This document shows positions 15,497 to 33,899 of a stretch of DNA of 64,000 bases, piece after piece (position 1 is the first letter of the stretch; every line of letters starts with the position of its first letter). The stretch lies in the NCBI GenBank assembly GCA_038887515.1, contig JAWAKK010000002.1:1-64000 (forward strand), read 5' to 3'. The DNA is from Candidatus Nezhaarchaeales archaeon (GTDB lineage Archaea; Thermoproteota; Methanomethylicia; Nezhaarchaeales; WYZ-LMO8). Both the position numbers and the translations under genes were made by a program. The notes under the pieces are model-generated. The model had not been told where the DNA came from, did no database searches, and was given only the letters and a program-made list of their open reading frames with translations.

Positions 15497-16332
15497 CCGT
15501 GATGTCTAGGAGCTACTTCGTTAAGGTTCCGATATGCATTATTGGTCAGTCTCTAGCTCAATATAACTATCCCGTACTATGTTACCAATCTGATGATGTC
15601 GGATTCTCGTTAACACTTGAACCTGGCAGCGGAGGACTAGAGGTCAAATGGTTAAGCCCTATAGCTGCATACATTAAAAGAAAGCTTTCCATACTTCTAC
15701 CTCGCTTAGAAGCGTTGAAGGTGGACGTAAAGATGGAGTTCTCTAGGACTCTACCGTTAATAGACTCAATAATAGTGGCGCTTAGAACAATATATGGAGA
15801 AGTTGGATTAAAGGAGGTTTCCCTTTACTCGCTTTCAAAAAGGTTGGCAGTACCCAAGTGGAGGATGAGGATCACTCTTGAAGCCATGAGGGGTGAGGGG
15901 TTGATGGCTTACCGTGAAGGTGAGGGGTTGATGGAGTTGCAAGATCGTTTCCCTTGGGCCATCGGTCTGTGCATAAAGATCCCGTCTAGGTTTAAGTTCT
16001 CTAAGGCGAACGGATTCGAAGATTCCCTTGAAGCAGCAATACACTCTCTAGGTAGGTTGATCATCTCAGTAGCACGTTCAATACTTAACAGTGATTTTAA
16101 GTTGTTCCGCAACGCTCTTCAAAGGTACACTAAGTTAAGCATAGCATTATCGAATTTACCGCTTACAACCCTTAAAGCATATGAAGTGCTTTCTAGAGAT
16201 GGAGAAGTTGCATGCAAAGTTGATGAGGACTTCAAGGGGTTTATGTTATTTAGCGAGAATGAGGAGGCAATGATGAAGTGCATGGAGAGGGCGAGGAAGA
16301 TGGGGTTTCAGGCCTTGGCTTTAAGGGGTTGA
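15493..16332 (+). CDS. Highly diverged GHMP-kinase-like protein at the usual mevalonate kinase position; catalytic loops missing
   Basis: Synteny (MEMO-x-ipk-fni), size, weak likeness to mevalonate kinase motif I; no PxGxGLGSSAA. Confidence 0.5.
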   Translation: MTVMSRSYFVKVPICIIGQSLAQYNYPVLCYQSDDVGFSLTLEPGSGGLEVKWLSPIAAYIKRKLSILLPRLEALKVDVKMEFSRTLPLIDSIIVALRTIYGEVGLKEVSLYSLSKRLAVPKWRMRITLEAMRGEGLMAYREGEGLMELQDRFPWAIGLCIKIPSRFKFSKANGFEDSLEAAIHSLGRLIISVARSILNSDFKLFRNALQRYTKLSIALSNLPLTTLKAYEVLSRDGEVACKVDEDFKGFMLFSENEEAMMKCMERARKMGFQALALRG

Positions 16333-16339
16333 CGACCGC

Positions 16340-17128
16340 ATGACCCTATCTATCGTAAAGTTTGGAGGGAGCGCGATTACCGTAAAGGACAGGCCCTTTA
16401 AGGTGAGGAGGCGGGCGTTAAAGAGTGTCTGCGCTCAAGTCCTTAGCCACTTCAATAAGGGCGGTAGAGTCGTAGTAGTTCACGGGGGAGGGTCTTTCGG
16501 CCACCCACTAGCTATAAAGTACGAGTTAAATAGAGGATTGACCAGCGAGGAGAGCTATGTAGGGGTTTCGCTCACCAGGTTAGCTATGAGAAAGCTCAAC
16601 GAGATAGTAGTTAGGGAGTTTATAAAGCTTGGGGGCAGACCCTACGCCATCGAGCCCTCGTCCTCGTTCTTGTTAAGGGAGGAGACGATGGATAGGTACT
16701 TTATCGAATGTGTAGAGGTGGCCCTTAGAAAGGGGTTCATTCCAATTTTGCATGGAGACGTAGTCCTCGACAAAGGTAAGAGGGGCGTGTCAATTTTGTC
16801 GGGCGATACCATAGCATCAATGTTAGCCCTGGAACTAAAAGCTGATAAATTAATTTACGTGCTCGACGTCGACGGAGTATACCTCGAAGATCCTAAGAAG
16901 AGCCCTAACGCTAGGCTCATAAATTTCTTGGATAAATCCTTGCTCGAAAAGGTAGAAGCTATCTCTGGGCTAGATGCTACAGGAGGGCTTGCGAGAAAGA
17001 TAAGGGAGGCGTTTAGGGCATTCGAAGGCGGCGTAGGGACCGTGTGCTTTGTAGGTTGGCGTGGAGGCAATCTGCTGAAGGCCCTTGAAGGGCTGAGGTT
17101 TAGAGGTACTTCGATAAAGGGGTGTTAA
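16340..17128 (+). CDS. ipk: Isopentenyl phosphate kinase
   Basis: KFGGSAITVK, VHGGGSFGH, HGDVV, SGD, DATGG. Confidence 0.92.
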   Translation: MTLSIVKFGGSAITVKDRPFKVRRRALKSVCAQVLSHFNKGGRVVVVHGGGSFGHPLAIKYELNRGLTSEESYVGVSLTRLAMRKLNEIVVREFIKLGGRPYAIEPSSSFLLREETMDRYFIECVEVALRKGFIPILHGDVVLDKGKRGVSILSGDTIASMLALELKADKLIYVLDVDGVYLEDPKKSPNARLINFLDKSLLEKVEAISGLDATGGLARKIREAFRAFEGGVGTVCFVGWRGGNLLKALEGLRFRGTSIKGC

Positions 17129-17129
17129 G

Positions 17130-18239
17130 TTGCTAGATGAAGTAAGTAACAGGAAGCTTGAGCATATAGAGATATGCGTGAAAGAAGATGTCGAGATGCA
17201 CCGTAACACGACGGGCTTCGAAGATGTATGGCTAGTTCATAGATGCCTCCCCGAAATCGACGTTAGTGACGTAAGGTTAGAGACGAAGTTCCTTGGACAC
17301 GAGCTAAAGGCTCCATTAATGGTTTCAGCCATGACGGGGGGCCACAGTAAAACTAAGGAAATAAATAGTACAATAGCCGAAGTGGTCGAGGAAATGGGCC
17401 TGGCAATGGCGGTTGGCAGCCAGAGAGCTGCCTTACTAAATGAAGGTCTCGCAGAAACCTTTACAGTAGTGCGCAAGAAGGCACCTACAGCGTACATAAT
17501 CGCGAATATAGGGGTTGTCCAGCTCACAGCTAACTTGGATATAAGTGACGTACGCAAGATAGTGGAAATGATAGAGGCAGATGCCCTTAACATACACTTA
17601 AATCCAGCACACGAATTCTCCCAGATGGAAGGAGACCTCAAGTTTAAGGGGGCTTTACAAGCCATTAAAAGGGTTGCGGAGAATATAGATGTACCAGTAA
17701 TAGTTAAAGAGACCGGATGCGGAATTTCACGAGAAGATGCCGTAAAGCTCGTAGAAGAAGCGAACGTGAAGGCCATAGACGTAGCTGGAGCGGGAGGTAC
17801 AAGTTGGTGTAAAGTCGAAGCGTTGAGAGCACGAAACCGTGGCAACCACTTTAAGGCACGGGTTGCTGAAGCCTTCACAGAGTGGGGAATACCTACAGTC
17901 ATAAGCTTAATAGAAGTCAGGAGCGGAGTAGACATCCCCATAATAGCATCGGGGGGCGTTAGAAGCGGGGTCGATTGCGCTAAGGCGATAGCGATAGGGG
18001 CAGACATAGCCGGTATGGCTCTACCAGTTTTGAGGGCTGCGAGTCAAGGTGTAACCGCGCTAAGAAACTTTCTTAACGTTGTGATTGAACAGCTTAAGGG
18101 CGCTATGTTCTTAACCGGGGCTCGAAACCTACACGACTTAAAGAGGGTAGACATAGTAATAACCGGCAGAGTTAAAGAGTGGCTTCAAATAAGGGGTGTA
18201 GACCTCGAGGATTACCTGAAGAGAAGGAGAGCACTATGA
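17130..18239 (+). CDS. fni: Type 2 isopentenyl-diphosphate delta-isomerase
   Basis: RKLEH, AMTGG, VGSQR, VKETGCG, AGAGGTSW, ASGGVR. Confidence 0.95.
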   Translation: MLDEVSNRKLEHIEICVKEDVEMHRNTTGFEDVWLVHRCLPEIDVSDVRLETKFLGHELKAPLMVSAMTGGHSKTKEINSTIAEVVEEMGLAMAVGSQRAALLNEGLAETFTVVRKKAPTAYIIANIGVVQLTANLDISDVRKIVEMIEADALNIHLNPAHEFSQMEGDLKFKGALQAIKRVAENIDVPVIVKETGCGISREDAVKLVEEANVKAIDVAGAGGTSWCKVEALRARNRGNHFKARVAEAFTEWGIPTVISLIEVRSGVDIPIIASGGVRSGVDCAKAIAIGADIAGMALPVLRAASQGVTALRNFLNVVIEQLKGAMFLTGARNLHDLKRVDIVITGRVKEWLQIRGVDLEDYLKRRRAL

Positions 18240-19981
18240 TCTTCCCCGACGACGTGGTACAGCTAGTGAGGAAGTGCGCCTTAATCAATGCATACGAACA
18301 TGGAGGAAAGGCAGCCCAAGGACCCGTCCTAGGCAAAGTAATTGCCGAGAGACCTTATCTAAGAGCCCAAGTCAAGGACTTAGCTAAGCTAGTCGAGGAG
18401 GTAATCAGCGAAGTAAATAGAATGAGCTTAGAAGAAATAAAGAGGGAAGTAGAAGAAAAGTATCTCGAAGCCGTCGTAAGGAAGAGGGAAGTAGAAGAAA
18501 AGGTGTTGCCCCCTCTACCTAACGTTGACAAGTACGAAAAAGTCGTGACCAGGTTCGCTCCAAACCCCGACGCCCCGCTTCACCTAGGTAGTTTAAGACC
18601 TTTAATTTTATCATACGAGTACGCGAGGATGTACAAGGGCAAGTTCATTCTGAGGTTCGACGATACAGATCCTAAAACCAAGAAGCCTATGCCGGAGGCT
18701 TATAAGTGGATCATAGATGACATGAAGTGGCTTGGAATAGAGGCGGACGAAATAGTGTACCAGTCCGATAGACTCGAGCTCTACTACGAAGTTTGCAAAG
18801 AGCTCCTGAGCAAAGGAGGAGCATACGTATGTACCTGTAGCCAAGAGGGCTTTAAGGTGTTGAGGGATTCTGGCAAGCCCTGCCCTTGCAGAGCACTTAG
18901 CCCTGAAGTGCATGTCGAGAGGTTTGAAGACATGATGTCTTCAAGGTACACGGAGAAGGGAGCCGTCGTCAGAATAAAGACGGATTTAAACCATCCAGAC
19001 TCCTCGGTGAGAGATTGGGTTGCCTTTAGAATAATAGACGTCGAAAGGAACCCGCATCCAAGGGTTGGAAGTAAGTACTCGGTGTGGCCTACGTACAACT
19101 TCGCCTGTGCGGTTGATGACCACATGCTTGAGGTAAGCCACATTTTAAGGGCTAAAGAGCATGTAACCAATACGATAAAGCAGAGGTACATCTTCGAACA
19201 CATGAATTGGCGTTTTCCCGAAACCATTCACTTCGGTAGACTGAAGCTTGCGAATATAATACTTAGTAAGTCTCAGATAAGCAAGGGGATTGCTAAAGGA
19301 GAGTTTCAGTGGTGGGATGACCCTCGCTTGGGCACAATAATGGCTGTCAGGAGGAGAGGTATATTACCGGAGACTCTAAGGGAGATAATCATTCACGTAG
19401 GTGTAAAGAGTTCTGAGGCTTCGCTAAGCTGGGAGAATATATACTCAGTAAACCGCAAGTACCTAGACCCCAAGGTTAACAGGTACTTCTGCGTACTGGA
19501 CGAAGTAAAGATGGTGGTTAAGGGCGTTGGCAAGGATTTTGTAGCGAAACCGCCGCTCCACCCGGATTTCCCCGAGAGGGGGCATAGAGTGATAAGGGTT
19601 AGGGCTATTGACGACAAGGTCGAGATTTACGTCTCCAAGAGGGACCTTAAACTAATAGAGAAGAGTCCGCTCGTGAGGCTTATGTCCTTATTCAATGTTC
19701 AAGTGAAAGAGGTGGGAGAGAAGGTCATATATGCCATCTATAAGGGAGAGAGCGTTGAAGAGGCTTCAAGATTTAAGGCACCAATTATACAATGGGTCCC
19801 GGTAGACGATAACGTATGCATTGAGATCGTTATGCCTGACGCCAGCATTGCTCGAGGATTAGCAGAAAGACACCTCGAAAAACTCGATGTAGGCTCTATA
19901 GTTCAATTAGTGCGAGTGGGATTTGTGAAGCTTGACGACAAAAGCGAGCGGAAGCTGAGGTTCTATTTTGCGCACGAATAA
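18236..19981 (+). CDS. gltX: Glutamate-tRNA ligase
   Basis: RFAPNP..LHLG, LRFDDTD, LSKS, WDDPRL; ATGA overlap with fni at 18236. Confidence 0.95.
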   Translation: MIFPDDVVQLVRKCALINAYEHGGKAAQGPVLGKVIAERPYLRAQVKDLAKLVEEVISEVNRMSLEEIKREVEEKYLEAVVRKREVEEKVLPPLPNVDKYEKVVTRFAPNPDAPLHLGSLRPLILSYEYARMYKGKFILRFDDTDPKTKKPMPEAYKWIIDDMKWLGIEADEIVYQSDRLELYYEVCKELLSKGGAYVCTCSQEGFKVLRDSGKPCPCRALSPEVHVERFEDMMSSRYTEKGAVVRIKTDLNHPDSSVRDWVAFRIIDVERNPHPRVGSKYSVWPTYNFACAVDDHMLEVSHILRAKEHVTNTIKQRYIFEHMNWRFPETIHFGRLKLANIILSKSQISKGIAKGEFQWWDDPRLGTIMAVRRRGILPETLREIIIHVGVKSSEASLSWENIYSVNRKYLDPKVNRYFCVLDEVKMVVKGVGKDFVAKPPLHPDFPERGHRVIRVRAIDDKVEIYVSKRDLKLIEKSPLVRLMSLFNVQVKEVGEKVIYAIYKGESVEEASRFKAPIIQWVPVDDNVCIEIVMPDASIARGLAERHLEKLDVGSIVQLVRVGFVKLDDKSERKLRFYFAHE

Positions 19982-20075
19982 GGTTGGAAGACGAAGTTAA
20001 AGTTTATAATACAGAGACTAGAAGTTAAGAGGTGCCTAACCCATGATTCGATGACAAGAGGGAGGTGAGGGATGC

Positions 20076-20528
20076 ATGTCTAAGCCGAGTTATGTTAGGT
20101 TTGAAGTGCCACCTGAACTGGCAGAAAAAGCCTATGAAGCGCTTAAAGTTGCTAGGGAGACGGGAAAGATAAAGAAGGGGACTAATGAGACCACAAAGGC
20201 CGTTGAAAGGGGCTTAGCGAAACTAGTCATTATAGCCGAAGACGTTGACCCCCCCGAGGTTGTAATGCACCTACCATTGCTTTGCGAAGAAAGAAAGATA
20301 CCTTATGTCTACGTGTCGAGCAAAGAGAAGTTAGGTCAAGCAGCTGGAATTGAAGTCAAGGCTGCGTCAGCGGCAATAATCGATCTAGGGCAGGCCAAGG
20401 ACCTAGTGGACGAGATAGTAACTAGAGTCAATGAAATAAAGGCTAAGGCCGGCTTGCCGACAACGCCTACAGTAACTGTAGAAGAGAGGGAGAAGCCAGC
20501 TAAGAGAGAGAAGAAGAGGGAGAAATAG
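20076..20528 (+). CDS. rpl7ae: 50S ribosomal protein L7Ae with C-terminal extension
   Basis: [33 protein letters not shown]. Confidence 0.97.
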
Positions 20529-20533
20529 TACGT

Positions 20534-20749
20534 TTAGCGCGGAGTAAGCTTCCTTGCTTCTCTTTCTGTTTCTCTAAGCATTAATATATCGCCAACCCTA
20601 ACAGGGCCTTTAACGTTTCTCGTAAGTATCCTACCTTTATCGGGGCCTTCAAGTATTCTACACCTAACTTGAATAACTTCTCCGGTAACCCCCGTTCTAC
20701 CAGTTATCTGTACAACTTCAGCCGGTGTAGCATCCATTGTAGAGCTCAT
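20534..20749 (-). CDS. rps28e: 30S ribosomal protein S28e (inverted relative to neighbours)
   Basis: [39 protein letters not shown]. Confidence 0.96.
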
Positions 20750-20865
20750 GAGCCTACACCTAGTAGATACGCCTTATAGGGCAAGTAGATAAATCTCTCT
20801 CTTAAATTTGTAGGTGGTAAGGGTTATAAGAAAGCCATGAAGATTCCTTAGAGGCGGTGTTTAGA

Positions 20866-21054
20866 ATGCTTAGAGCTACCACGTGTACATTCTGCGGAAG
20901 GAACGTTCCGATCGGAAGCGGGCTCATGTACGTTAAGAACGACGGAACCATACTGTACTTCTGTTCTAGTAAGTGCAAGAAGAACATGCTAGAGCTTGGG
21001 AGAAACCCTGCTAAGCTTAAATGGTGCCGAAAGACTAGGAAGGTGTACAAGTAA
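20866..21054 (+). CDS. rpl24e: 50S ribosomal protein L24e
   Basis: [25 protein letters not shown]; start 20857 or 20866. Confidence 0.95.
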
Positions 21055-21503
21055 TGGCTGTAGAGAGGACCCTGATAATAATCAAGCCCGGAGCCGTCGT
21101 AAGGGGGCTTGTAGGGGAAGTCCTCTCGAGACTTGAGAAGAAGGGGTTGAAGATCGTAGGCTTAAAGATGCTGAAGATGTCTAAGAAGAAAGCTGAAGAG
21201 CTATACTCTGTACATAAGGGTAAGCATTTCTATGAAGAGTTGATAAATTACATAACCTCCGCTCCCGTAGTTGTGGGAGTAGTTGAAGGCGACGATGCCA
21301 TTCAAGTAGTTAGAAGAGTTATAGGACCAACGAACCCCAAAGAAGCACCTCCAGGAACTATTAGGGGTGACTACGGAATATCAATAACCCAAAACATAAT
21401 CCACGCCTCAGATAGCATGGAGAGCGCTCAAAGAGAAGTGAAAATATTCTTTAGTGAAGAAGAGCTGTGCAGCTACTCGAGAGCTGACGAAGCCTGGCTC
21501 TAA
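21054..21503 (+). CDS. ndk: Nucleoside diphosphate kinase
   Basis: [24 protein letters not shown]. Confidence 0.96.
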
Positions 21504-21586
21504 CGTAAATCACTTTCAATCGACAGATTAAAGAGGTCCTCCCTCAGCTTTTCACCTATCTGGTTTATCTGAGGGAGGTGTTATAG

Positions 21587-23409
21587 GTGAGTATTACCTT
21601 AGAAAGTAAAAGGGTTAGATCGCCTATTCTATGCGTGCTAGGACACGTAGACGTTGGTAAAACGCTCCTGTTGGATAAGATAAGAGGGACTGCAACAATG
21701 TTTAGGGAAGTTGGGGCCATGATGTAGCGCCTCGAGGCGCTACGTGGCAAACCCAACATATTGGTGCGTCCTTCTTACCCTGGTCTGCCTTAGAGAAGAT
21801 TTGTGGTCCATTACTTAGGAGCGTAAAGGTCGAGATCAAGATACCTGGATTCTTGGTTATAGATACTCCAGGTCACGAGGTTTTCGTTAACTTGAGAAAG
21901 AGGGGAGGCTCCATAGCAGATATGGCTATCCTAGTCATAGACGTTCTTGAAGGGTTTGAGGAGATAACGTATGAGTGTTTAGAGATATTAAAGGCTAGGA
22001 GAACCCCGTTTGTAGTCGCTGCAAATAAGATAGATAAGATATCTGGGTGGGTCGAGAACGAGTTTAAACCGTTTACTGAAACAATAAAGCAACAGCCACT
22101 ACAGGTACAGAAGAGGCTCGACGAGCTCATATACGCTATCGTGGCTAAGTTTGAAGAGCTTGGTTTTCAGGCAGATAGATATGACCGGATAAGAGATTTC
22201 ACCAAGACTGTTGCTATAATACCTACTAGCGCTAAGACTGGGGAAGGGATACCTGACTTACTACTAGTCCTAGCAGGCTTATCTCAGAGGTATATGTTGA
22301 AGAGGCTTTTCGTTAAAGAAGATGTAGCTAAGGGAGTTGTGTTAGAGTGTAGGGAAATGCCTGGCCTAGGCACAGTAGCCGACGTTATAATTTACGACGG
22401 CATACTAAGGAAGGATGACGTCATTGTGCTTGGTGGGCTCAAGGGGCCCATTGCGACTAAAATTAGGAACATTCTAATGCCTAAACCTATGGATGAAATG
22501 AGGGACCCGGAAGACAAGTTTAAGAGCGTTGATGAGGTCGTAGCCGCCGCTGGCATTAGAATTGTGGCTCAAGGCCTTGACGAAGCCGTAGCCGGTAGCC
22601 CACTGTTTTCAGCCAAAAGCCAGGCTGACGTGGACGCCGCCGTAAAGCAAGTCTTAGAGGAGATATCGAAGATAAGAATAACTACGGATACGATAGGGGT
22701 CGTCGTTAAAGCGGACACTCTAGGTTCCCTCGAGGCTCTGACCTTAAAGTTGCAGGAGCACAACGTCCCCGTGAGGTTAGCCGATGTAGGAAAGATATCG
22801 AAGAGGGACGTTGTAGAGGCTGCGATAACGAAGGAGAGAGATCCTTATCACGGCGTAATCTTAGCTTTCAACGTAGGCGTAAACCCCGACGCTGAACAAG
22901 AGATAGAGAGCAGAGGCATACCAGTCTTTAAGAGCAACGTAATTTATAGGCTCATAGAGGACTACTTGGATTGGGTTAAGAAGAAGATGGAAGAAGAGCG
23001 TAGGCAAACACTGTCCTCTCTCATATTGCCCGGTAAAGCGCAGATATTGAGGGGTTACGTCTTTAGGAGAAGCGACCCAGCAATAGTTGGAGTTGAAGTT
23101 TTGGCTGGAAGACTTAAGCCGGGATATCCTCTGATGAACGCCAAGGGGAGGAAGCTTGGAACGATAATGCAAATACAGGAGCAGAAGAAGAGCTTGAACG
23201 AGGCGGTTGCCGGACACGCGGTTGCAATATCGATTAAAGGGGACGTAATGGTTGGCAGGCAAATAGACGAAGGAGACTACTTGTATGTTGATGTACCCTT
23301 AGAACACATCCGAATACTAAAGGAGAAGTTTTCAAATCAACTATCAAAAGAAGAGCTAGAGTTACTCGACGAGATAGCGAAAATAAAGAAGACGGCTGGA
23401 AGTTATTAA
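21587..23409 (+). CDS. infB: Translation initiation factor aIF5B (IF-2), two exons: join(21587..21721,21751..23409), 597 aa
   Basis: Exon 1 from GTG 21587 (SD GGAGGTG) encodes [25 protein letters not shown]...REVGAM; exon 2 continues [10 protein letters not shown]...IDTPGHE...NKID in another frame. Confidence 0.93.
21722..21750 (+). other. 29-nt BHB-type intron in aIF5B mRNA (predicted)
   Basis: GTTGGG/CCCAAC exon helix, GCCA/TGGC 4-bp central helix, TG^A and AA^A 3-nt bulges, TGTAGCGCC/GGCGCTACG intron stem; removal restores the frame. Confidence 0.9.
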
Positions 23410-23476
23410 TTAATTCAATGACCTCAAAGTTTTTAGCTAAGCCAAAGAGTGAGTTCACGCTAAGGGGTGAAAGAAA

Positions 23477-23845
23477 ACGCCCGAGTTCAAAGTAGTAGTA
23501 TCCGATCCGTTGACTGGTAAGGCTCAGCAGATAACTGTTAGTGGGCCTCAGGCTAACGCGTTGATTGGATTAAGGATAGGTGATGAAATTGACGGCACGC
23601 TCATTGGAATGCCCGGCGTTAGACTCGTGATTAGAGGTGGAAGCGATAGGAGCGGGGCACCAATGAGGCCAGATCTTCCCGGCCCCGTCAAACGAAGGCT
23701 ATTGCTTAGCCAAGGCCCCGGCTTTAGGCCAGAGAGGAAGGGTCTAAGAAAGAGGAAGCTTGTCCGAGGAAATACTATTTCAGAGGACATAGTTCAAATA
23801 AACATGGCCATAAAGCGCGAAGAAAAGGTGGCTGAAAGTGGCTGA
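23477..23845 (+). CDS. rps6e: 30S ribosomal protein S6e, probable ACG start
   Basis: [37 protein letters not shown]; conserved N-terminus lies upstream of the first TTG (23510). Confidence 0.9.
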
Positions 23846-25123
23846 AGACTGGGTAAAGAGACAGGCCGAACTAAATATCGGTACGACGGGCCACGTGGAT
23901 CACGGCAAGACTACCCTTACTTGGGCACTCTCAGGCGTTTGGGCTTCAAAGCACTCTGAAGAGCTTAGGCGAGGGATAACACTTAGGCTCGGTTATGCGG
24001 ACACCACTGTCCTGAAGTGTCCTAAGTGTCCGCCACCTCAGTGTTATACTACCTACGCGCTATCTGGGACGAGATGCAAGCACTGTGGATCTGACCTCGA
24101 GTTCGTGAGAAAGTATTCCTTCGTAGACTGTCCTGGACACGAGATTGCACGCCCATAATGGGCGTGCAACGTGATATGTTAATGGCTACGATGCTTGCTG
24201 GAGCAACGCTATTTGACGGCGCCATACTCGTGATCGATGCTACAGTTCCATGTCCTCAACCCCAGACGCGGGAGCACTTGAAGGCACTTGAAGTGCTGGG
24301 AGTAAAGAACGTCGTGGTAGTGCAGAATAAGATTGAAGTAGTCTCAAAGGAAAAGGTCGTCGAGAACTATCGCCAGATAAAGGAGTTTTTAAAAGATACA
24401 GCGCTACGTGATGCGCCTATAGTCCCGATATCGGCACTCCATAGAGCAAACCTTGATGTCTTAATAGAGACCATCGAGAAGACCATTCCTACTCCAAAGA
24501 GAGATACATCCAAGCCTCTAAGAGCATTGATAGCCAGGTCATTCGACATAAATAAGCCTGGAACCCCTCCGGAGGAACTAAAGGGCGGGGTCTTAGGAGG
24601 ATCTATAATTCAAGGGATTGCAAGGGTTAGCGACGAGATAGAGATAAGGCCTGGAATTAGGATTGAGAAGGGCGGGAAAGTAGAGTACGAGCCCCTATTC
24701 ACTGAGTTAGTGAGCTTAAAAGCTGGAGACGTAGACGTAGAGGAAGCTAGACCTGGAGGTCTAATAGGGTTTGGCACTAGCCTCGATCCTTCAATAACGA
24801 AGGCTGACTCGCTTGCTGGCAGCGTTATAGGTAAGCCGGGCACATTGCCTCCAACACTTTTCGAATTAAGTTTGGAAGTTGTTCTATTTGAAAAGGCCGT
24901 TGGGACTGTCGAGATGGTGAAGGTTGAAAGCATAAAGCCCAACGAGGTTTTAATGATAAACGTCGGAACAGCTACGACCCTAGGGACTGTGACTAAGTCT
25001 TCAAAGGATATCGTATCATTGAAGTTACGAAGACCCGTCTGCGCTGAAGCTGGAACTAGAGTAGCTGTGAGCCGACAAATAGCTAGTAGGTTTAGGCTAA
25101 TAGGGTACGGAGTTATAAGGTGA
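23838..25123 (+). CDS. eif2g: Translation initiation factor aIF2 gamma, two exons: join(23838..24143,24176..25123), 417 aa
   Basis: Exon 1: [29 protein letters not shown], Zn knuckle, SFVDCPGHE; exon 2: [34 protein letters not shown]. Confidence 0.93.
24144..24175 (+). other. 32-nt BHB-like (relaxed exon helix) intron in aIF2gamma mRNA (predicted)
   Basis: CACG/CGTG central helix, AG^A and AT^A bulges, TTGCACGCCCA/TGGGCGTGCAA intron stem; removal gives DCPGHE-MLMATML. Confidence 0.85.
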
Positions 25124-25141
25124 TTATGGAGGGGCTTAGAT

Positions 25142-25537
25142 ATAGTTAAGGTACTTTTCGACACGAACTTCTTGATGGCGATGTTCGAGAGACCCGTAGA
25201 TGTGGTCAAGAGAGTTGAGGAGGTGCTCGAAGTAAGTGTTGAGCCTGTAATCTTAAAGTCGCAGATCCGCGAACTTGAGAATATCGCTAACTCCGATAAG
25301 AGGCTGAAGGCTTCGAGGACGGCTCGTGCGGTCCTACAGTGCATTAAAGACAGGTTTAGCGTAGTTGAGGATTTTGGAGGAGTCGTCGACGACGTCCTGC
25401 TCGAAGTCTCTAGACGTGAGGGTTACATCGTAGCAACGAACGATAGAGAGCTTCGACGGAAGCTTCGGAGCAACGGTATAAGCGTCATATACTTGAGGAG
25501 TGATGGGAAAGTAGAAATTGAAGGTTTTCAACCTTAG
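25142..25537 (+). CDS. PIN-domain protein (Utp24/Fcf1-like) usually found after aIF2gamma, probable ATA start
   Basis: VKVLFDTNFL...ELE...VDD...VATNDRELR; the catalytic DTN motif lies upstream of the first canonical start (25172). Confidence 0.85.
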   Translation: MVKVLFDTNFLMAMFERPVDVVKRVEEVLEVSVEPVILKSQIRELENIANSDKRLKASRTARAVLQCIKDRFSVVEDFGGVVDDVLLEVSRREGYIVATNDRELRRKLRSNGISVIYLRSDGKVEIEGFQP

Positions 25538-25621
25538 CAAGCTACAGAAAGTTTAATACAAAAAGCTTGAGGTTTCTAAACTTACGCAATACTCCAAGTT
25601 TAAGCTCACGGTGAAGAATCC

Positions 25622-26200
25622 ATGTACTACTTAGTCACCATGTCAGATGAAGTTAGGATTCCACCAAGTAGGTTTAACGAGAAGCTCGAAAACGTTGCTT
25701 TTGATAGTTTGAAGTCCATGTATGAAGGAATAGTCATAAAGGGCGTTGGATTGGTAGTCGCAATACTTGGAGTAAAGGTTTCCCCCGTTGGTAGGATATT
25801 GCCGGGCGACGGCGCAACATATCACAAGGTTAAGTTTGACGCTCTCGTCTACCTACCGGTTGAAGGGGAAGTGGTTGAAGGGGAAGTAGTAGATATAGTA
25901 GACTTTGGAGCGTTCATCAGGATAGGGCCCATAGATGGGCTTGTACACGTCTCGCAGGTAGCCGATGATTTTATATCATTCGATAAGAAGAAGGGAGAAC
26001 TTTTGTGTAAGCAGACGAGGAGGAAACTGTCTAAAGGAGATGTTGTAAGAGCTAGGATTGTAACCATTAGCGTAAGTGGTATGAGATTAAATGAAGTCAA
26101 GGTAGGCCTAACCATGAGGCAGCCATTCCTAGGAAAGATAGAGTGGATAAACGAAGACCTCAAGAAGGAGAAGGCTCCAACTAGGGTGAAGGAGAAGTGA
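25622..26200 (+). CDS. rpoE1: RNA polymerase subunit E' (Rpo7)
   Basis: VRIPP, GDGATY, FGAFIRIGPIDGLVHVSQ, LTMRQPFLGK. Confidence 0.96.
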   Translation: MYYLVTMSDEVRIPPSRFNEKLENVAFDSLKSMYEGIVIKGVGLVVAILGVKVSPVGRILPGDGATYHKVKFDALVYLPVEGEVVEGEVVDIVDFGAFIRIGPIDGLVHVSQVADDFISFDKKKGELLCKQTRRKLSKGDVVRARIVTISVSGMRLNEVKVGLTMRQPFLGKIEWINEDLKKEKAPTRVKEK

Positions 26201-26406
26201 GTAAGAGGGCTTCTGCGAGGTTTAAGTGCTGCTTAAGGTGTAAATCCCTTCTCCCAAGTCAAGCCAATGTATGCCCTAATTGTAAGTCTAGCGAATTTAG
26301 TTTCGATTGGAGCGGCTTGGTCATAGTATTCGACACTGAAAACTCCCTTATAGCAAGCGCTCTGAAGATAACGAAGCCCGGCAGGTACGCTATTAAGTGC
26401 AGGTAA
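26197..26406 (+). CDS. spt4: Transcription elongation factor Spt4 (RpoE'')
   Basis: CxxC...CPNC, WSGLVIV, PGRYAIK. Confidence 0.93.
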   Translation: MSKRASARFKCCLRCKSLLPSQANVCPNCKSSEFSFDWSGLVIVFDTENSLIASALKITKPGRYAIKCR

Positions 26407-26412
26407 GGAGTC

Positions 26413-26955
26413 TTGAGGCTGAAGGCGTATAAGGTAGACGAAAACATTCGAAGAGAGCTTAGCAAGCCTTGGGGCCAAGTCATTACCAACGAGGAAATAG
26501 CGGCTGGAGAACTCGAGAAGAATCTAGAGAGGATGGAGGCACGCATAATATTGACCGTAGGGGACGTAACCACCAATACATTTCTCGAAAGGGGGATAAA
26601 GCCCAAGGTAGCTATCGTGGACTCGAAGACCTTACGGGGACCTTATCATGTCGACCTAACGAGTAAAATGGAAGTGGTCGCCGAGGTCATAAACCCGCCA
26701 GGGCACGTAGCCGTCAAGGCTATAGAAGTCATAAGTAGGGTGATCGAAAGAGGGGGGCTAGTCGTAGTGAAGGGTGAAGAGGACCTGCTCGTCATTCCAT
26801 CGATACTCGCGCTACCCGAGGGAGCCGTAGTAGCATACGGTCAGCCGAATGTAGGAGTAGTACTAATAAAGGTGGACAAAGATAAGAAGGAGAAGGTTAA
26901 AGAGGTATTAAGGTCTATGAGGGAGGTAGAGGTCGATGACTCAATACCAAGTTAA
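26413..26955 (+). CDS. GTP-dependent dephospho-CoA kinase (DUF359)
   Basis: TVGDVTT, NPPG, GEEDLL, YGQP. Confidence 0.9.
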   Translation: MRLKAYKVDENIRRELSKPWGQVITNEEIAAGELEKNLERMEARIILTVGDVTTNTFLERGIKPKVAIVDSKTLRGPYHVDLTSKMEVVAEVINPPGHVAVKAIEVISRVIERGGLVVVKGEEDLLVIPSILALPEGAVVAYGQPNVGVVLIKVDKDKKEKVKEVLRSMREVEVDDSIPS

Positions 26956-27247
26956 GGTCTTAAGAGACGTAGAGAACAAGGTCCTAAACAGGAGGGAGCT
27001 CCTACTACAAATAGATCATACCAGCGCTAGGACCCCCACAAGAAGTGAGGTTAGAGAGGTCGTCTCCTCAATGTTCGGCGCTCCACAGAACCTAATCGTG
27101 ATCAAGAGCATAAGGACGGTATCTGGGACGAACGTTACTAAAGCCCACGTGCACATATACGGGGACGAGAAGGCGCTGGAGGAAGTAGAACCGAAGTACA
27201 TGAAACTCAGGAACTTTGGAAAGAAAGAGGAAAAGAGCGGCACATGA
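26936..27247 (+). CDS. rps24e: 30S ribosomal protein S24e
   Basis: NKVLNRREL, TPTRSEV, VEPKY. Confidence 0.93.
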   Translation: MTQYQVKVLRDVENKVLNRRELLLQIDHTSARTPTRSEVREVVSSMFGAPQNLIVIKSIRTVSGTNVTKAHVHIYGDEKALEEVEPKYMKLRNFGKKEEKSGT

Positions 27248-28251
27248 ACGGAGGACGATCGTTGCACAAGACCGTAGTACTGGGCATAGAAGCTACCGCT
27301 CACACCTTTGGTTGCGGAATAGTTGACGCCGACGGTAAAATCTTGGCCAATGTAAACGACACTTACATCCCAGCAAGAGGAGGAATTCATCCAAGGGAGG
27401 GCGCCCAACACCATTCCGACGTTGCCCCACGCGTCATTAAGAAGGCGCTAGCCCAAGCCAACTTAAGCCTTGAGCAGGTGGACGCTATAGCAGTTGCTCT
27501 GGGACCGGGGTTAGGTCCCTGCCTTAGGGTTGGCGCTACGATAGCTAGGGCTTTGGCAGTCGCATATAGGAAGCCTCTCGTTCCAGTTAATCATGCAGTG
27601 GCTCACATAGAGATAGCTAAACTGACCACTGGCTTCAAAGATCCATTAATAGTATTCGTGTCTGGCGGAAACACTATCATAGCGGCGTACTCCGACGGAA
27701 GGTATAGGGTTTTCGGCGAGACCCTCGATATAGCTCTAGGAAACCTGCTAGACACCTTTGCTAGAGAGGCAGGATTACCACACCCTGGCGGACCAAGGAT
27801 AGAAGAGTTAGCGAGGAAAGGGGAGAAGTTGCTTAAGCTACCGTACATAGTTAAAGGGCAGGACGTCTCGTACTCCGGGCTATTAACCGCGGCAACTAGG
27901 CTCCTTAAGGAAGGTCACAGACTTGAGGATTTATGCTATAGCTTGCAGGAGTATGCCTTTGTCATGCTTTCTGAAGTTGCTGAGAGGGCGCTGACCTACA
28001 CCGAAAAGAAGGAACTAGTGTTGACAGGCGGCGTCGCCGCTAATAGCGAGCTTCAGAGGAAGCTAATGATCGTAGCTGAAGAACATAATGCGAAGTTTGG
28101 AGTGGTTCCTAAAGCGCTTTCAGGCGATAACGGCGCTATGATAGCCTGGACAGGCGTTTTAGCCTACACCCATGGGGTCACGGTGGACGTAGAAAGAAGT
28201 TACGTGAAGCCGAGGTGGAGGCTTGATGACGTCGATATACCTTGGGTTTAA
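27244..28251 (+). CDS. kae1: KEOPS t6A synthase Kae1
   Basis: LGIEATAHT, GPGLGP, VNHAVAHIE, VSGG, GETLDIA, DNGAMIA. Confidence 0.96.
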   Translation: MNGGRSLHKTVVLGIEATAHTFGCGIVDADGKILANVNDTYIPARGGIHPREGAQHHSDVAPRVIKKALAQANLSLEQVDAIAVALGPGLGPCLRVGATIARALAVAYRKPLVPVNHAVAHIEIAKLTTGFKDPLIVFVSGGNTIIAAYSDGRYRVFGETLDIALGNLLDTFAREAGLPHPGGPRIEELARKGEKLLKLPYIVKGQDVSYSGLLTAATRLLKEGHRLEDLCYSLQEYAFVMLSEVAERALTYTEKKELVLTGGVAANSELQRKLMIVAEEHNAKFGVVPKALSGDNGAMIAWTGVLAYTHGVTVDVERSYVKPRWRLDDVDIPWV

Positions 28252-28258
28252 TGGGCGA

Positions 28259-28894
28259 ATGATAAGGAAGGGCGCTGAAGCGGAGCTCTACCTGATAGAC
28301 TTTTTGGGCATGCCAGCGGTACTCAAGAAGAGGATCTCGAAGCGCTATAGAGCTAAGGAGCTCGACGAGTACATTAGGAGGCTGAGGACGGCCCACGAAG
28401 TTACAATGATGTTCCACGCTAGAGTTTGCGGCGTCCCGGTTCCGGCTATATTTGACGTCGACCCGAACGAGGGCGTCATAATAATGGAGTATATTCCAGG
28501 GCCCACGCTTAAAGAGATGACGTTAAGGGGGCTTGACGTGGCTCCAATTTTTAGGCTCATAGGCTTCTACGTTGGTAGAATGCATGTTAACAACATAGTT
28601 CACGGGGACTTAACCCCAGCCAACGTAGTCGTACCGGAGTTGGAGAAGCCTTTCTTCGTGGACTTCGGGCTTGCAGATAGAACTGGAGAGCTTGAGGCTT
28701 TAGGGACCGATATACACTTAATGATTAGAGCTCTCGAGAGTACCCATTACAATAAGGTTAGAGAGCTCTTCGAAGCCTTCTTAAGTGGCTACAGGGAGGT
28801 CATGGGGGCTAAGACTAATGACGTGATGAAGAAAGTTAGAGAAATTAGGAGGAGGGGAAGGTATGTCGAGGAGAGGAGGATTAAGGCTCATTGA
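28259..28894 (+). CDS. bud32: KEOPS kinase Bud32
   Basis: KGAEA, IVHGDLT..N, DFGL, RRRGRY; ATG at 28259 preferred. Confidence 0.93.
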   Translation: MIRKGAEAELYLIDFLGMPAVLKKRISKRYRAKELDEYIRRLRTAHEVTMMFHARVCGVPVPAIFDVDPNEGVIIMEYIPGPTLKEMTLRGLDVAPIFRLIGFYVGRMHVNNIVHGDLTPANVVVPELEKPFFVDFGLADRTGELEALGTDIHLMIRALESTHYNKVRELFEAFLSGYREVMGAKTNDVMKKVREIRRRGRYVEERRIKAH

Positions 28895-29630
28895 CGTTCA
28901 CTGCCACCTACACGACGAGGCTTTCGACGGTGATAGAGATAACGTCATAAAGAGAGCCTTGGATAACGGCGTTGAAGTCATGGTAACTTCGACTCTAAGC
29001 CTTCATGAGCTTAAAAAGGCTTTTGAAATAGCTAGGAGGCATGAGTATGTTAAGGTGTCGGCAGGTTTCAACCCTTTAAACACTTCGATGACTGAAGCAG
29101 AAGAGTTAGCGCGTGAAGTAAAGAGGGTTAGAAATTCGATACTAGCTATAGGAGAGGTTGGTTTAGACTTCTTCTTCATGAAGGGGGAAGATCGAGACGC
29201 GCAGGTTAAGGTCTTTAGGTTCTGGATTAGCGTTGCTTCAGAGCTAAAGTTGCCGATAGTGGTTCACTCTAGGAGCGCTGGAAGGTACGCCATAGAGTTA
29301 TTGATTGAGGAGGATTATGATAGGGTTTTAATGCATGCTTTCGATGGTAGTAGTGGATGGGCGTTGAAGGGGGTCTCGAAAGGTTTCCTCTTTTCCATCC
29401 CTCCATCAATCGTAAGGTCGCGACAGAAGATTAAGCTTGTAAGATCCATTCCGTTAGATTTCCTAGCTGTCGAGAGCGATGCACCTGTCCTCGGCCCAAC
29501 GCCTACGGAAAGAAATGAACCTTTAAATATCGTCGTAGGGGCAACTAAGATTGCCGAAGTCAAGAAGATTGATTTAGCTGAAGCATGTGAAGCTTTGTAT
29601 TCAAACTCAAAGAGTTTCTTCAAACTTTAA
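28863..29630 (+). CDS. TatD family hydrolase
   Basis: DVHCHL, IGEVGLD, VHSR, ESDAP. Confidence 0.9.
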   Translation: MSRRGGLRLIDVHCHLHDEAFDGDRDNVIKRALDNGVEVMVTSTLSLHELKKAFEIARRHEYVKVSAGFNPLNTSMTEAEELAREVKRVRNSILAIGEVGLDFFFMKGEDRDAQVKVFRFWISVASELKLPIVVHSRSAGRYAIELLIEEDYDRVLMHAFDGSSGWALKGVSKGFLFSIPPSIVRSRQKIKLVRSIPLDFLAVESDAPVLGPTPTERNEPLNIVVGATKIAEVKKIDLAEACEALYSNSKSFFKL

Positions 29631-29631
29631 G

Positions 29632-30081
29632 TTAGAAGTTTATTTTGTCTTCTTCCTTTACGGTGCGTAGGACTATCATCGTCTGAGTTGAGGTGACCCC
29701 CTCAACTTCTCCTATCCTATCTATTATCTTAGCCAACGAGTCTCTACTGCTCGCTCTAATCTTTAGGACTGCATAGTACTCGCCGGTTACATCGTATACC
29801 TCGTAGACGTCGTCTATTGATGCTACCTCTTTTAGAACTTCTTTGAACTTCATGGGATCGGCCTTCAAGAGGACTATTGCTGTAAATCCCTTCCCTACCT
29901 TTGCTGGATCTATGACAGCCCTAAAGCTTTTGATTACTCCAAGTTTTTTGAGCTTTTGGACTCGGAGATGGACGGTAGCTTCGCTGACCCCTATACTTGA
30001 GGCTATCTTCGAAAAAGGCATTCTTGCGTTTTCCTGCAACATTTTAAGGATTTTCAAGTCTACTTCGTCGAGTCCCTCCAT
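29632..30081 (-). CDS. Lrp/AsnC family transcriptional regulator
   Basis: LDEVDLKILKMLQENAR HTH, VTGEY RAM domain. Confidence 0.93.
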   Translation of the reverse strand: MEGLDEVDLKILKMLQENARMPFSKIASSIGVSEATVHLRVQKLKKLGVIKSFRAVIDPAKVGKGFTAIVLLKADPMKFKEVLKEVASIDDVYEVYDVTGEYYAVLKIRASSRDSLAKIIDRIGEVEGVTSTQTMIVLRTVKEEDKINF

Positions 30082-30208
30082 AATTCTTTAACCCCTACTT
30101 CAAAAAGTTGAGCTTTGCTTTAGATAATTTTCAAGTAACCCTTAACTATTTAAGGTTTAAACGAAAGACCTATGAAATCCTTAATAGCGTAGGCAGTAGA
30201 AGTATTCC

Positions 30209-31336
30209 TTGATGATGCAGAGGAGAGCCTTCGACCTACCATTGCATGACGGCAAGGCCCCTAGGTGGCTCTATGAAAGGATGGTCAGGTTGGCGAGTTG
30301 CATTTTAGCGATAATAATCGATGAGTATGGTCCTAGAGGGTTCCTAGAAAGGGTAGCAGACCCCCTGTGGTTTCAAGCTTTAGCTTGCACTCTAGGATAC
30401 GACTGGGATAGTAGCGGTACTACAACAGTTACGTGCGCTGCGATTAAGAAAGCTCTACGAAATAGAGAGCTTGGAGTAAAAGCTTGTGGAGGTAAGGGTA
30501 AGACCTCGCGGCTTACGCCTCAAGAGATAGTCGAGGTCTGCAAGCTTTACGATATTGAAATCTACGCATCCAGCCTAGTAAAGGCAAGCAGGCTTGTAGC
30601 AAAGATAGACACCTCAGCCATACAGGCTGGATATCAGTTGTATCATCATATGTTCTTCATAGCTGAGGACGGTTCTTGGGCCGTGGTACAACAGGGAATG
30701 AGAGAGAAGTACGCGAGAAGGTTCCACTGGCTTTCAACGGAGTTAAATAACTTCAGCGAAGAGCCCCATAGCGGAATAGTTGGAGACACTGTTCATCAAA
30801 GCGTCCTAAACTTAACGGATAAAGAGAGTAGAGAAGCTAGGAAGCTATGCGTTGAGGTGGCGAAGGAGGGGCCTGAAAGAGTTAAGAAGCTACTTAGAGT
30901 TGCCTACACGAAGATTAGGGGCCCTCTCGATCAATGGCTACAGAGAGAGGGTACCGTAAATATCGACGTTTATAGGCTGCCGCAGACCGTCAATTGGACT
31001 GCGCTGGAGGAAGCACTTCGATTAAGCCCTTCAAGCTTCGAGGAGTTACTGCTAATTGATGGCATGGGCCCCCTGACTATAAGGAGCCTTGCGCTGATAG
31101 CTAACCTCATATTCGAGGCGAAGTTAAGCTGGAGGGACCCTGTAAAGTATTCGTTTGCGTTCGGCGGCAAGGACGGGATACCTCACCCGGTCGACGTCAA
31201 GAGGATGGATGAAGCAATAGGTTTCCTAGAAGCCGCTGTCGATAAAGCAAACGTTGATTGGAAGGAGAAGAGGGAAGCTCTTAGAAGGTTAGCCGGCTTA
31301 CTTGTTGGCGTGCATGAGCGTAATCGACGCGAATAG
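30209..31336 (+). CDS. DUF763 family protein
   Basis: DLPLH.GKAP.WL, DWDSSGTTT, YQLYHH, FAFGGKDG.P. Confidence 0.9.
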   Translation: MMMQRRAFDLPLHDGKAPRWLYERMVRLASCILAIIIDEYGPRGFLERVADPLWFQALACTLGYDWDSSGTTTVTCAAIKKALRNRELGVKACGGKGKTSRLTPQEIVEVCKLYDIEIYASSLVKASRLVAKIDTSAIQAGYQLYHHMFFIAEDGSWAVVQQGMREKYARRFHWLSTELNNFSEEPHSGIVGDTVHQSVLNLTDKESREARKLCVEVAKEGPERVKKLLRVAYTKIRGPLDQWLQREGTVNIDVYRLPQTVNWTALEEALRLSPSSFEELLLIDGMGPLTIRSLALIANLIFEAKLSWRDPVKYSFAFGGKDGIPHPVDVKRMDEAIGFLEAAVDKANVDWKEKREALRRLAGLLVGVHERNRRE

Positions 31337-31347
31337 CCTTAAAATAA

Positions 31348-31908
31348 TTGGGTACCGAGATAATTTTAAGTTGCGCTAGGCAAAGGGGTTTAAAGCACTT
31401 GTCGTCGAGCGCTGAAGAGAGGATAGTAGCAGTCGTGCCAGCACTTACGCCAGAGCACTTAGCTTTAAGTAAGTTGTACTTCGTGATCGTAACGAATAAG
31501 AGAGTTATGGGGCTTTACTGCGGAGGCCTCTTATCCGGAATCGATAGGTTTGCCTCTATACTGGAGGCCCTAGGATGGACTCCGGTCGCAAAGTACTCAT
31601 TAGCTAAAGAGATCCTCCTAGCTCCCAGCAGCGTACCGCTCGACAAACCTATGATAGGAGAGGAGGCTGAAGTAGACATTGAAGAGCTGGAGAAACTCTT
31701 ACAAGCTAGAAAGAACAACTTCGTCTATAGCTTGGACGAGATAAGCGAAGTGAGGATAGAGCCTAGGAGGGGACACGACGTTTTCTATAATTTCACGATA
31801 GTAGCTAAAGGAAAGTCGAAGAAACTACTAGTCAGCGTAAGAGTCATCAGAATCGTCGAGGATCTGTTTAAAAAGGTGCTTAAAGAGAAGCTTAAGATAA
31901 CTTATTGA
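31348..31908 (+). CDS. Hypothetical protein (possible PH-like fold)
   Basis: 186-aa ORF, IVTNKRV segment; true start may be TTG near 31399. Confidence 0.5.
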   Translation: MGTEIILSCARQRGLKHLSSSAEERIVAVVPALTPEHLALSKLYFVIVTNKRVMGLYCGGLLSGIDRFASILEALGWTPVAKYSLAKEILLAPSSVPLDKPMIGEEAEVDIEELEKLLQARKNNFVYSLDEISEVRIEPRRGHDVFYNFTIVAKGKSKKLLVSVRVIRIVEDLFKKVLKEKLKITY

Positions 31909-32684
31909 GCGTCTTCAGCCTTAGCGCCTACCTCGCTAGCAAGCTCCTTAAGCATCCTGCAGGCTTCATAGACCTCTTTTTCAGCTTCCTCCTTAATCGA
32001 AGCTCTACAAGAGACCTCTACCTCTATGTACAGCTCGCCATCCCTCTTAGGGCGAGACTTGACGTAGACCGACCTGAACTTCTTCATAACCTCGTCTATT
32101 AGGGGTGCGAGAGAAGACTCCTCGATCCCGCTAACCTTAATGGTTTTAAAGATGAAAGCAGTTCTCGAAAGCCTAGAGACTATAGGTTCTACATGTAGCT
32201 CGAACATGGCTTTCATCTCCGATGGGACCCCGGGCAGTGCTATGATGGTAGTAGCTCCAACCTCTATCAGACATCCTGGGGCTGTACCTACAGGGTTAGA
32301 GAGGGGCTTACCGCCTTCCGGTAGCCTAGCCATCTTTAGCCTAGGAGGCGTAACGTCTCCGCCGTACTTCTCTTCAATCATGCGAAGCGCTTCTTGGTTA
32401 AGCTTAAGACGAAGGCCTAGGGCAATCGAGATGCTCTCAAGGGTCCTATCATCGAAGGTGGGGCCTAAGCCGCCGGTAGTGATTATAAGCTTTGGCTTCC
32501 TATCTAGCGCTTCCCTTATCGCGGCGCTACATTCCTCAACTTCATCGCTTACGGTGGTAATCCTCTTAACTATGCCGCCAAGCCTAGTTATCCTATCAGC
32601 GATCCAAGATGCGTTCGTGTTAACGACCCTACCCGTTAGAAGTTCGTTACCTATGGTTATGAGTTCTACCGTAAGGTCCTCCAT
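31902..32684 (-). CDS. CinA-like/molybdopterin-binding domain protein
   Basis: IGNELLTG..VNTNA, TGGLGPTFDD, NPVGTAPG, LPGVP. Confidence 0.9.
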   Translation of the reverse strand: MEDLTVELITIGNELLTGRVVNTNASWIADRITRLGGIVKRITTVSDEVEECSAAIREALDRKPKLIITTGGLGPTFDDRTLESISIALGLRLKLNQEALRMIEEKYGGDVTPPRLKMARLPEGGKPLSNPVGTAPGCLIEVGATTIIALPGVPSEMKAMFELHVEPIVSRLSRTAFIFKTIKVSGIEESSLAPLIDEVMKKFRSVYVKSRPKRDGELYIEVEVSCRASIKEEAEKEVYEACRMLKELASEVGAKAEDAQ

Positions 32685-32850
32685 ACTACCACCGTCGATT
32701 CAAAAAGCAAGCTCTAGGAGACCATCTTCGACGATGGTTTAGCTCTATTATAAACCTTCCGCAAAACACCGTAATAGCTTCTGTAGCTTCTTGGCTTTAA
32801 GTAAGTACTCGAGGTACATTGCTTTTACGGTTTGGCGAGCGAGCCATCCA

Positions 32851-33885: not shown

Positions 33886-33899
33886 ACACCTCGACCAAT

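Follow-up and report, generated by a model that had tools for sequence, protein, structure and literature searches.

How does an archaeon make the translational GTPase aIF2-gamma, an essential initiation factor, when the reading frame of its gene is broken at switch II? The question is raised by the window, by which we mean the whole stretch of DNA analysed, the first 64,000 nucleotides of contig JAWAKK010000002.1 in assembly GCA_038887515.1 of a Candidatus Nezhaarchaeales archaeon. A frame from the putative start GTG 23838, the first start codon downstream of a stop, reads through ...SFVDCPGHE, continues as IARP, and ends at TAA 24156-24158, and a second frame begins at 24158 (MGVQRD) and runs for 321 codons to a stop at 25121-25123. 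If positions 24144-24175 are excised, codon GAG, which ends at 24143, meets ATG at 24176, and 102 and 315 codons join into 417 residues. The original prediction, made on the letters of the DNA, had described the frame that fails after SFVDCPGHE and IARP, and proposed that an excision of 32 nt directly after DxPGHE (G3/switch II) restores a 417-aa product; the sequence and the open reading frame listing bear out the frame, translation of the joined exons returns the product, and the position of the insertion stands. We consider it highly probable, at roughly 85%, that 24144-24175 is an archaeal pre-mRNA intron of the relaxed bulge-helix-bulge (BHB) type, spliced out of the aIF2-gamma message by EndA and RtcB. 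The elements of the locus, as predicted, are these:

23838-24143, plus strand: aIF2-gamma exon 1, 102 codons from GTG 23838, with G1 GHVDHGKT, the zinc knuckle and G3 DCPGHE
24138-24141, plus strand: 5' strand of central helix H, CACG, at the end of exon 1, comprising the His codon and the first base, G, of the Glu codon
24142-24144, plus strand: 5' bulge AGA, 3 nt between H and the intron stem, with the predicted cut at 24143/24144
24144-24175, plus strand: predicted intron, 32 nt, whose excision fuses GHE and MLMATML in frame
24145-24169, plus strand: intron hairpin h', an 11-bp stem (24145-24155 with 24159-24169) and the loop TAA at 24156-24158
24170-24173, plus strand: 3' strand of central helix H, CGTG, intronic and invariant
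24174-24176, plus strand: 3' splice-site triplet ATA, with the predicted cut at 24175/24176, in a loop-like context with no closed bulge
24176-25123, plus strand: aIF2-gamma exon 2, 315 codons (24176-25120) and the stop 25121-25123

Whether the two frames are pieces of a single gene can be asked of protein profiles. Exon 1 matches NCBIfam NF003077 at positions 3-96 and exon 2 at positions 97-411; against TIGR03680 the same pieces cover 2-92 and 93-407, and in both profiles the matches abut with zero gap and zero overlap. Pfam GTP_EFTU is likewise cut, with 4-80 in exon 1 and 85-187 in exon 2, and exon 2 also matches Pfam GTP_EFTU_D2 and eIF2_C. The genome is a metagenome-derived assembly of 1.29 Mb in 9 contigs, 94% complete, and because its second match to the C-terminal part of aIF2-gamma is a paralogue of 34% identity (E = 3.8e-5), the interrupted gene is taken as its sole aIF2-gamma. 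The source DNA run is a hot-spring metagenome, in which the stretch lies in one contig at a depth of about 19.

The same insert recurs throughout the family. The C-terminal part of the protein was searched in the genome of the window and 40 relatives, and 30 loci were inspected. All 10 species genomes of the family, spread over 4 genera, have an insert at the identical site between the Glu codon and the Met codon, with lengths of 32, 32, 35, 33, 31, 32, 33, 32, 33 and 32 nt, and the 20 inspected loci of seven other families are free of it, with DxPGHE-xLMATML unbroken. Within the order, which has 15 species genomes, this means 10/10 in the family and 0/5 in the other two families. The nearest relatives are metagenome-assembled genomes (MAGs) labelled Candidatus Nezhaarchaeota and "Nitrososphaerota", and one family further out they are labelled Candidatus Methanomethylicia. 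A wide scan of 185,579 species genomes gave, among its best 80 loci, 2 family loci that are interrupted and 78 others of which 78 are not; three of its loci (L031, L032 and L033) are the same places as those in genomes G003, G008 and G014. All told the insert is absent from 93 archaeal loci besides those of the 5 genomes in the order's other families. A pattern scan of metagenome contigs, which fixed the 3' arm and the helix and so could find insert-bearing copies only, produced 16 further contigs, all with an insert of 32-35 nt. Because the same codon boundary is used in 10/10 family genomes and in 16 metagenome contigs, the insert is more than chance. From this distribution the intron would appear to have arisen, or to have been kept, in just one family of the order.

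Family genomes and metagenome contigs together amount to 16 distinct versions. The variation in length resides in the hairpin loop, and the 33-nt versions carry an in-frame TAA. In all 16, cutting after the second base of each triplet yields CAC GAR|AUG, which is GHE|MLM, and the intron-less orthologues read DCPGHEMLMATML, matching the restored GHE|MLMATML. A stop inside the insert would end translation of an unspliced aIF2-gamma message at once. The exon-1 frame does stop within the insert in 8/10 family genomes, mostly at the TAA of the hairpin loop, and in the remaining 2/10 it extends 12 or 29 codons further. One metagenome copy (L122:2536-2615) has DCHGHE for DCPGHE in G3, the Pro codon being changed, together with a normal 32-nt insert; the change may stem from a sequencing error, or the copy may be damaged.

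The minimum free energy (MFE) fold of 24120-24195 is made of the helix, the bulge and the stem, at -31.1 kcal/mol (z = -4.37), a stability equalled by 0 of 200 shuffles. In the stem, TTGCACGCCCA (24145-24155) pairs with TGGGCGTGCAA (24159-24169) over 11 bp with TAA as the loop. RNAalifold on the 16 distinct copies returns the same helix, bulge and stem, with the outer helix absent. The central helix CACG/CGUG has 4 bp, all of them invariant and paired in 16/16 copies; the 5' bulge is ARA in 16/16; the 3' triplet is ANA in 16/16, with T, C, G or A as the middle base; and the 10 aligned stem pairs are paired in 98.1% of cases, the stem measuring 10-11 bp across copies. The CACG/CGTG helix, the AGA and ATA triplets and the intron stem that had been drawn from the single sequence are thus recovered both by the MFE fold and by RNAalifold.

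What class of motif is this? The strict BHB motif has a 4-bp central helix and two 3-nt bulges on opposite strands (PMC4090602), and relaxed forms named HBh' and bulge-helix-loop (BHL) are described for Thermoproteota (PMC4090602, PMC3241643). In the insert, the 3' triplet follows the 4-bp helix H but stays unclosed as a bulge: the pair beside it is A-U in 15/16 copies, the next is G.G and forms in 0/16, and the one after that is G-C or G-U in 16/16. The exon-exon helix that would close the 3' bulge of a strict hBHBh' motif is accordingly absent from the alignment of 16 copies and from its RNAalifold structure, in agreement with the weak exon-side helix and the relaxed form that the original prediction had proposed. 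The single-sequence MFE fold draws a distal outer helix (24121-24131 with 24182-24191), which we rejected, its pairs at wobble sites being broken in 8-11 of the 16 copies. As modelled, the motif is the relaxed HBh' or bulge-helix-loop form, with one site in the bulge between H and h' and the second in a loop, two bases downstream of H. A self-splicing group I or group II intron was also considered and rejected, since the insert has no Rfam match and 32 nt is far under ribozyme size; at gathering scores, the Rfam scan of the whole window finds only a tRNA-Gly at 4113-4187.

Nucleotide diversity (pi) over the 10 species genomes gives an indication of how the insert is constrained. With 150 and 300 nt taken as flanking exon, pi at third codon positions is 0.53 and 0.51, and at first and second positions it is 0.06-0.12. 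Within the intron, pi is 0.098 and 0.060 in the stem arms, 0.000 in the intronic strand of helix H, and 0.32 at the last two bases. A non-coding stretch that is conserved like amino-acid-determining positions qualifies as a functional RNA element, and by these values the insert is under purifying selection. The stem holds its sequence (pi 0.06-0.10) despite near-saturated synonymous sites beside it (0.52), and both sides of a pair have changed at two stem pairs, U-A to C-G and C-G to U-A, both in a single genome (G009). Selection on structure alone would predict more covariation than the stem shows; sequence-specific recognition, costly unpaired intermediates at high temperature, or a recent spread of the intron between species are possible reasons for its conservation.

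The boundaries used here come from the rule that places each cut behind the second bulge base. Applied elsewhere in this genome, it mends four further genes, which makes the aIF2-gamma intron, as far as can be judged from sequence, one of at least five such introns in protein genes:

L129:1691-1711, equal to G000:C2:333915-333935, plus strand: cbf5 insert, 21 nt, in-frame, contains TAA
21722-21750 of the window, plus strand: insert in the aIF5B gene (21587-23409), 29 nt, between ...REVGAM and TQHIGAS in the switch-I region
G000:C1:3238-3267 (L163), minus strand: uS5 insert, a 30-nt hairpin with in-frame TAG between QRQTD and AGESSRF
G000:C1:10133-10162 (L164), minus strand: insert in an mtnA-like gene, a 30-nt hairpin in the THC-N-AGALAT motif of an mtnA/eIF-2B-like isomerase gene

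The cbf5 case is the one with a published reference. Here the rule splits the catalytic Asp codon after its first letter, and the boundary of the cbf5 intron in Crenarchaeota is at that same position of the codon (PMC2738675); because the rule reproduces the assigned crenarchaeal boundary in this genome, the rule is corroborated. The gene is interrupted near the same profile position in 14/14 genomes of the order that give a match, and with this insert the range of the cbf5 intron would reach past Desulfurococcales and Sulfolobales. The aIF5B insert has a canonical hBHBh' motif, with outer helix GUUGGG/CCCAAC, central helix GCCA/UGGC, and bulges UGA and AAA. It is present, at 29-33 nt, in 15/15 genomes of the order, with stem sequences that are unrelated between families. 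The aIF5B pieces match their profile at 5-40 and 45-591, which is consistent with contiguity if one allows for the query spans, 21587-21712 ending three codons short of the exon and 21742-23406 including three extra intron codons. The uS5 pieces are contiguous on NF003125 (4-66 and 67-208), and inserts of 22-34 nt with co-varying stems occur in 14/15 genomes of the order, the exception having an open frame of 228 codons. The mtnA-like pieces fall at 2-155 and 157-337 of NF004700, the split codon being the Asn of THCN, and the insert is present in 9/9 family genomes with a match and absent from 5/5 in the other two families, so the mtnA-like and aIF2-gamma inserts have an identical distribution within the order.

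Looking over the five, we observe that each sits in one of the most conserved or catalytic motifs of its host: switch II, the switch-I region, the catalytic Asp, THCN and QTxAG. Lengths of 29-32 nt and stems of 9-11 bp are shared by four of them, and the first base is A in 9 of the 10 splice-site triplets.

The number five depends on how the genome is scanned. Loose scans, with G-U pairs allowed and loops up to about 100 nt, gave 91 matches on one strand of the window and 263 "ORF-joining" matches (joining open reading frames) genome-wide, which are mostly ordinary gene boundaries and were set aside. A strict scan, requiring a stem of at least 8 bp with at most 1 G-U and a loop of at most 10 nt, gave 38 matches, versus 15 in the block-shuffled genome. 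Among the strict matches examined, profile contiguity identifies those in aIF2-gamma, uS5 and the mtnA-like gene as introns, and aIF5B is a fourth, scored twice. Rejected were hairpins at C2:129387-129418 in uL3 and at C1:551020-551052 in the DPLDGSSN motif of an inositol-monophosphatase-like gene, both of which lie within an open frame with no intron, and the matches at C1:103722, C1:598678 and window 44395-44424, which are gene boundaries. Because the strict scan is blind to short-stem introns like that of cbf5, five is a lower bound. Contigs C5-C9 of this genome (6.6-12 kb) have G+C of 0.50-0.63 versus 0.44-0.45 in the four large contigs, are devoid of tRNA genes, and may represent mis-binned or mobile DNA.

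Does the organism have the enzymes for such splicing? A PF01974 search finds EndA as two genes. One encodes a 191-aa protein in which both EndA domains and the catalytic Tyr, His and Lys are present, and which corresponds to the C-terminal half in two-unit EndA models; the other encodes a 178-aa protein that fits the N-terminal half in these models as well as beta-subunit models, with the His missing at that place. The best Protein Data Bank match of the 191-aa protein is the alpha subunit of the Aeropyrum pernix (alpha-beta)2 EndA (3p1z_B, E = 2.6e-48), to which it aligns without gaps over the Crenarchaea-specific loop, with K46 and K48 at the places of APE K44 and R46. That loop, K44 especially, enables the enzyme to cleave BHL motifs as well as introns located at non-standard positions (PMC3241643). 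The host EndA would thus be the broad-specificity two-subunit type with the Crenarchaea-specific loop and its conserved Lys; a broad-specificity enzyme is what had been expected from the insert, with the subunit type named as the thing to determine. RtcB is intact, with a stop-free PF01139 match of 600.8 bits at G000:C1:94319-95629, and ARAGORN places introns in 18 of 46 tRNA predictions.

Put together, the proposed mechanism would run as follows. In the transcript, the four bases CACG at the end of exon 1 would pair with the last four paired bases of the intron, CGUG, forming the 4-bp central helix. The 5' splice site would then occupy a genuine bulge of 3 nt that separates this helix from the 10-11 bp intron hairpin, and the 3' splice site would lie two bases past the helix in an open, loop-like context, giving the relaxed HBh' or bulge-helix-loop form. 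An (alpha-beta)2 EndA with the Crenarchaea-specific loop would cut after the second base of each triplet, and RtcB would ligate the exons into a continuous message of 417 codons reading ...DCPGHE-MLMATML.... Unspliced message would give a truncated G-domain fragment only.

Several observations weigh against this account. Two metatranscriptome runs, which belong to one study with the DNA run and were sampled at about 3 in 100 reads each, had 0 reads on window positions 15000-34000 (19 kb); the spliced junction was not seen in them, and they are no test of splicing or expression. The motif lacks the outer helix that a strict BHB has, and the 3' cut therefore depends on a relaxed specificity that is predicted for this EndA by homology only. 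The cut rule has one check, its agreement with the published cbf5 boundary. Covariation is thin, the two both-side changes coming from one genome, and the observed values were matched in 12 to 34 of 500 shuffled controls, with a tested structure that included two non-conserved outer helices. The 16 metagenome copies cannot reveal variation in the 3' arm and helix that the search pattern had fixed. Finally, an in-frame GTG or ATG stands 12 nt upstream of exon 2 in 10/10 genomes, and separate translation of the C-terminal part is compatible with the codon logic.

That last point leads to the explanation by a split gene, in which the hairpin would be retained and an N piece of about 106 aa with a short tail would assemble into one G domain with a C piece, whose start would be either the GTG/ATG of the 3' arm or the first residue, Met, in MLMATML. 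The upstream codon speaks for it, as do the ATG with which exon 2 itself starts and the stop within the insert that closes the exon-1 frame in 8/10 genomes. We regard it as improbable: the break lies inside switch II, between consecutive profile positions; the tail of the N piece is unconserved, being IARP*, a 9-residue tail, or tails of 12 and 29 residues that go beyond the insert; and the candidate start is buried in a G+C-rich stem of 10-11 bp. A split gene also leaves unexplained the pairing of exon CACG with an invariant CGUG, and the geometry shared with the cbf5, aIF5B, uS5 and mtnA-like inserts.

Translational recoding, by ribosomal bypass, frameshift or readthrough, would also leave the hairpin in the message. 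The model for bypass is phage T4 gene 60, which resembles the present case in having a short untranslated gap with a hairpin in an essential coding sequence, and which needs matched take-off and landing codons plus a stop after take-off. A stable hairpin does come directly after the last sense codon here, and the triplet before exon 2 is GAR in 7/16 distinct copies, a codon with which the tRNA-Glu from the take-off GAR could pair anew. Unlike in gene 60, these features are not consistent among aIF2-gamma copies: in the other 9/16 that triplet is GAT or GAC, leaving the take-off and landing codons unmatched, and the take-off codon is followed by ATT or ATC rather than a stop. Frameshifting would call for a separate shift in each of the 31-, 32-, 33- and 35-nt forms and lengthen switch II by 10-11 residues, no one recoding event would serve all these lengths, and the other four interrupted genes are without matched codons, aIF5B having AUG before its insert and CAA at the end. 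We give recoding a very small chance. An artefact of assembly or sequencing, or a pseudogene in a degenerating genome, might be suspected of an assembly that is metagenome-derived, in 9 contigs and 94% complete, and the sole DNA run holding the stretch may be the assembly's own source and so not independent of it. The insert nevertheless recurs across 10 independent species assemblies and 16 contigs from other metagenomes, the exons are under strong protein-level constraint (pi of 0.06-0.12 at positions 1 and 2 versus 0.52 at position 3), and the genome is without a second copy of aIF2-gamma, so that error and decay are already effectively refuted and keep hardly any probability.

Taking the insert, then, as an EndA-type intron, we ask how it compares with what has been described. 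The cbf5 pre-mRNA intron was reportedly described by Watanabe in 2002. It is the intron of Desulfurococcales and Sulfolobales covered by Yokobori 2009 (PMC2738675), and in the available part of that paper, as with aIF2-gamma, it is a short non-coding insert in a catalytic motif of a protein-coding gene, is specific to lineages, has a mostly unconventional or relaxed BHB motif cleaved by a hetero-oligomeric EndA (proposed here for aIF2-gamma), and in some copies is a multiple of three with the frame still interrupted. The differences are that the splicing of cbf5 is experimentally demonstrated and that of aIF2-gamma is predicted, and that the host here is a translational GTPase, interrupted at switch II, in a lineage labelled Ca. 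Nezhaarchaeota or Methanomethylicia. Non-canonical HBh'/BHL introns in tRNAs of Thermoproteota share with the insert the 4-bp central helix, the single 3-nt bulge, the second site in a loop, and the need for an (alpha-beta)2 EndA with the Crenarchaea-specific loop (PMC4090602, PMC3241643, as far as these were available). Introns of tRNAs range from 11 to 175 nt (PMC2738675), which covers the aIF2-gamma insert. Unlike those, the insert would be part of an mRNA substrate with no tRNA body, and its exon helix strand is constrained by a His-Glu codon pair.

The EndA of Haloferax volcanii is of a different type. A BHB intron in its HVO_1309 mRNA resembles the present one as an EndA substrate (a predicted one in our case) outside tRNA and rRNA, and differs in that it lies in a 5' untranslated region (UTR), where it does not interrupt the reading frame (PMC7714728). 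The accessible text of that 2020 paper names cbf5 as the "only one example" of a BHB intron in a coding sequence besides the 5'-UTR case, and that of PMC2738675 states that, as of 2009, introns in genes other than cbf5 had no confirmation. Our search of full-text literature, which covers neither subscription journals nor supplements, found no report of introns in aIF2, aIF5B or Nezhaarchaeota. Most likely, then, aIF2-gamma is a new gene and its host a new lineage for coding introns of the cbf5 type.

A eukaryotic parallel is the unconventional mRNA splicing of HAC1/XBP1, in which IRE1 cuts and tRNA ligase or RtcB joins. As is proposed for the aIF2-gamma insert, those introns are short, coding and independent of the spliceosome, with sites defined by stem-loops, joining by a tRNA ligase, and a frame change that decides the product; unlike it, they are cut by IRE1 and not by EndA, and their splicing is regulated. 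This system is touched on in the part of PMC13149111 available to us. One may go further and read the five genes jointly, with the order holding a growing multi-gene set of EndA-type introns, all five in key motifs, and those in aIF2-gamma and the mtnA-like gene either acquired at the root of one family or retained there alone. Because both initiation GTPases, aIF2-gamma and aIF5B, and a ribosomal protein would all need splicing by EndA and RtcB, the tRNA-splicing machinery would then act as a checkpoint on translation capacity, an archaeal counterpart of regulated splicing of the HAC1/XBP1 type and a living model of how coding genes gain introns. We hold this wider reading to be tentative and rather unlikely as a whole.

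Some consequences would follow from the intron in aIF2-gamma itself. Automated gene calling will break up aIF2-gamma, aIF5B and uS5 or label them pseudogenes, and because these genes widely serve as markers for phylogenomics and completeness, trees and quality estimates for these genomes may suffer. The aIF2-gamma insert is also a compact natural substrate, of about 40 nt, for asking how an (alpha-beta)2 EndA reads a relaxed motif outside tRNA. If the intron is true, it takes endonuclease-type mRNA splicing beyond a one-gene curiosity; the companions in aIF5B, uS5 and the mtnA-like gene strengthen the case, and together they would show intron gain within an order.

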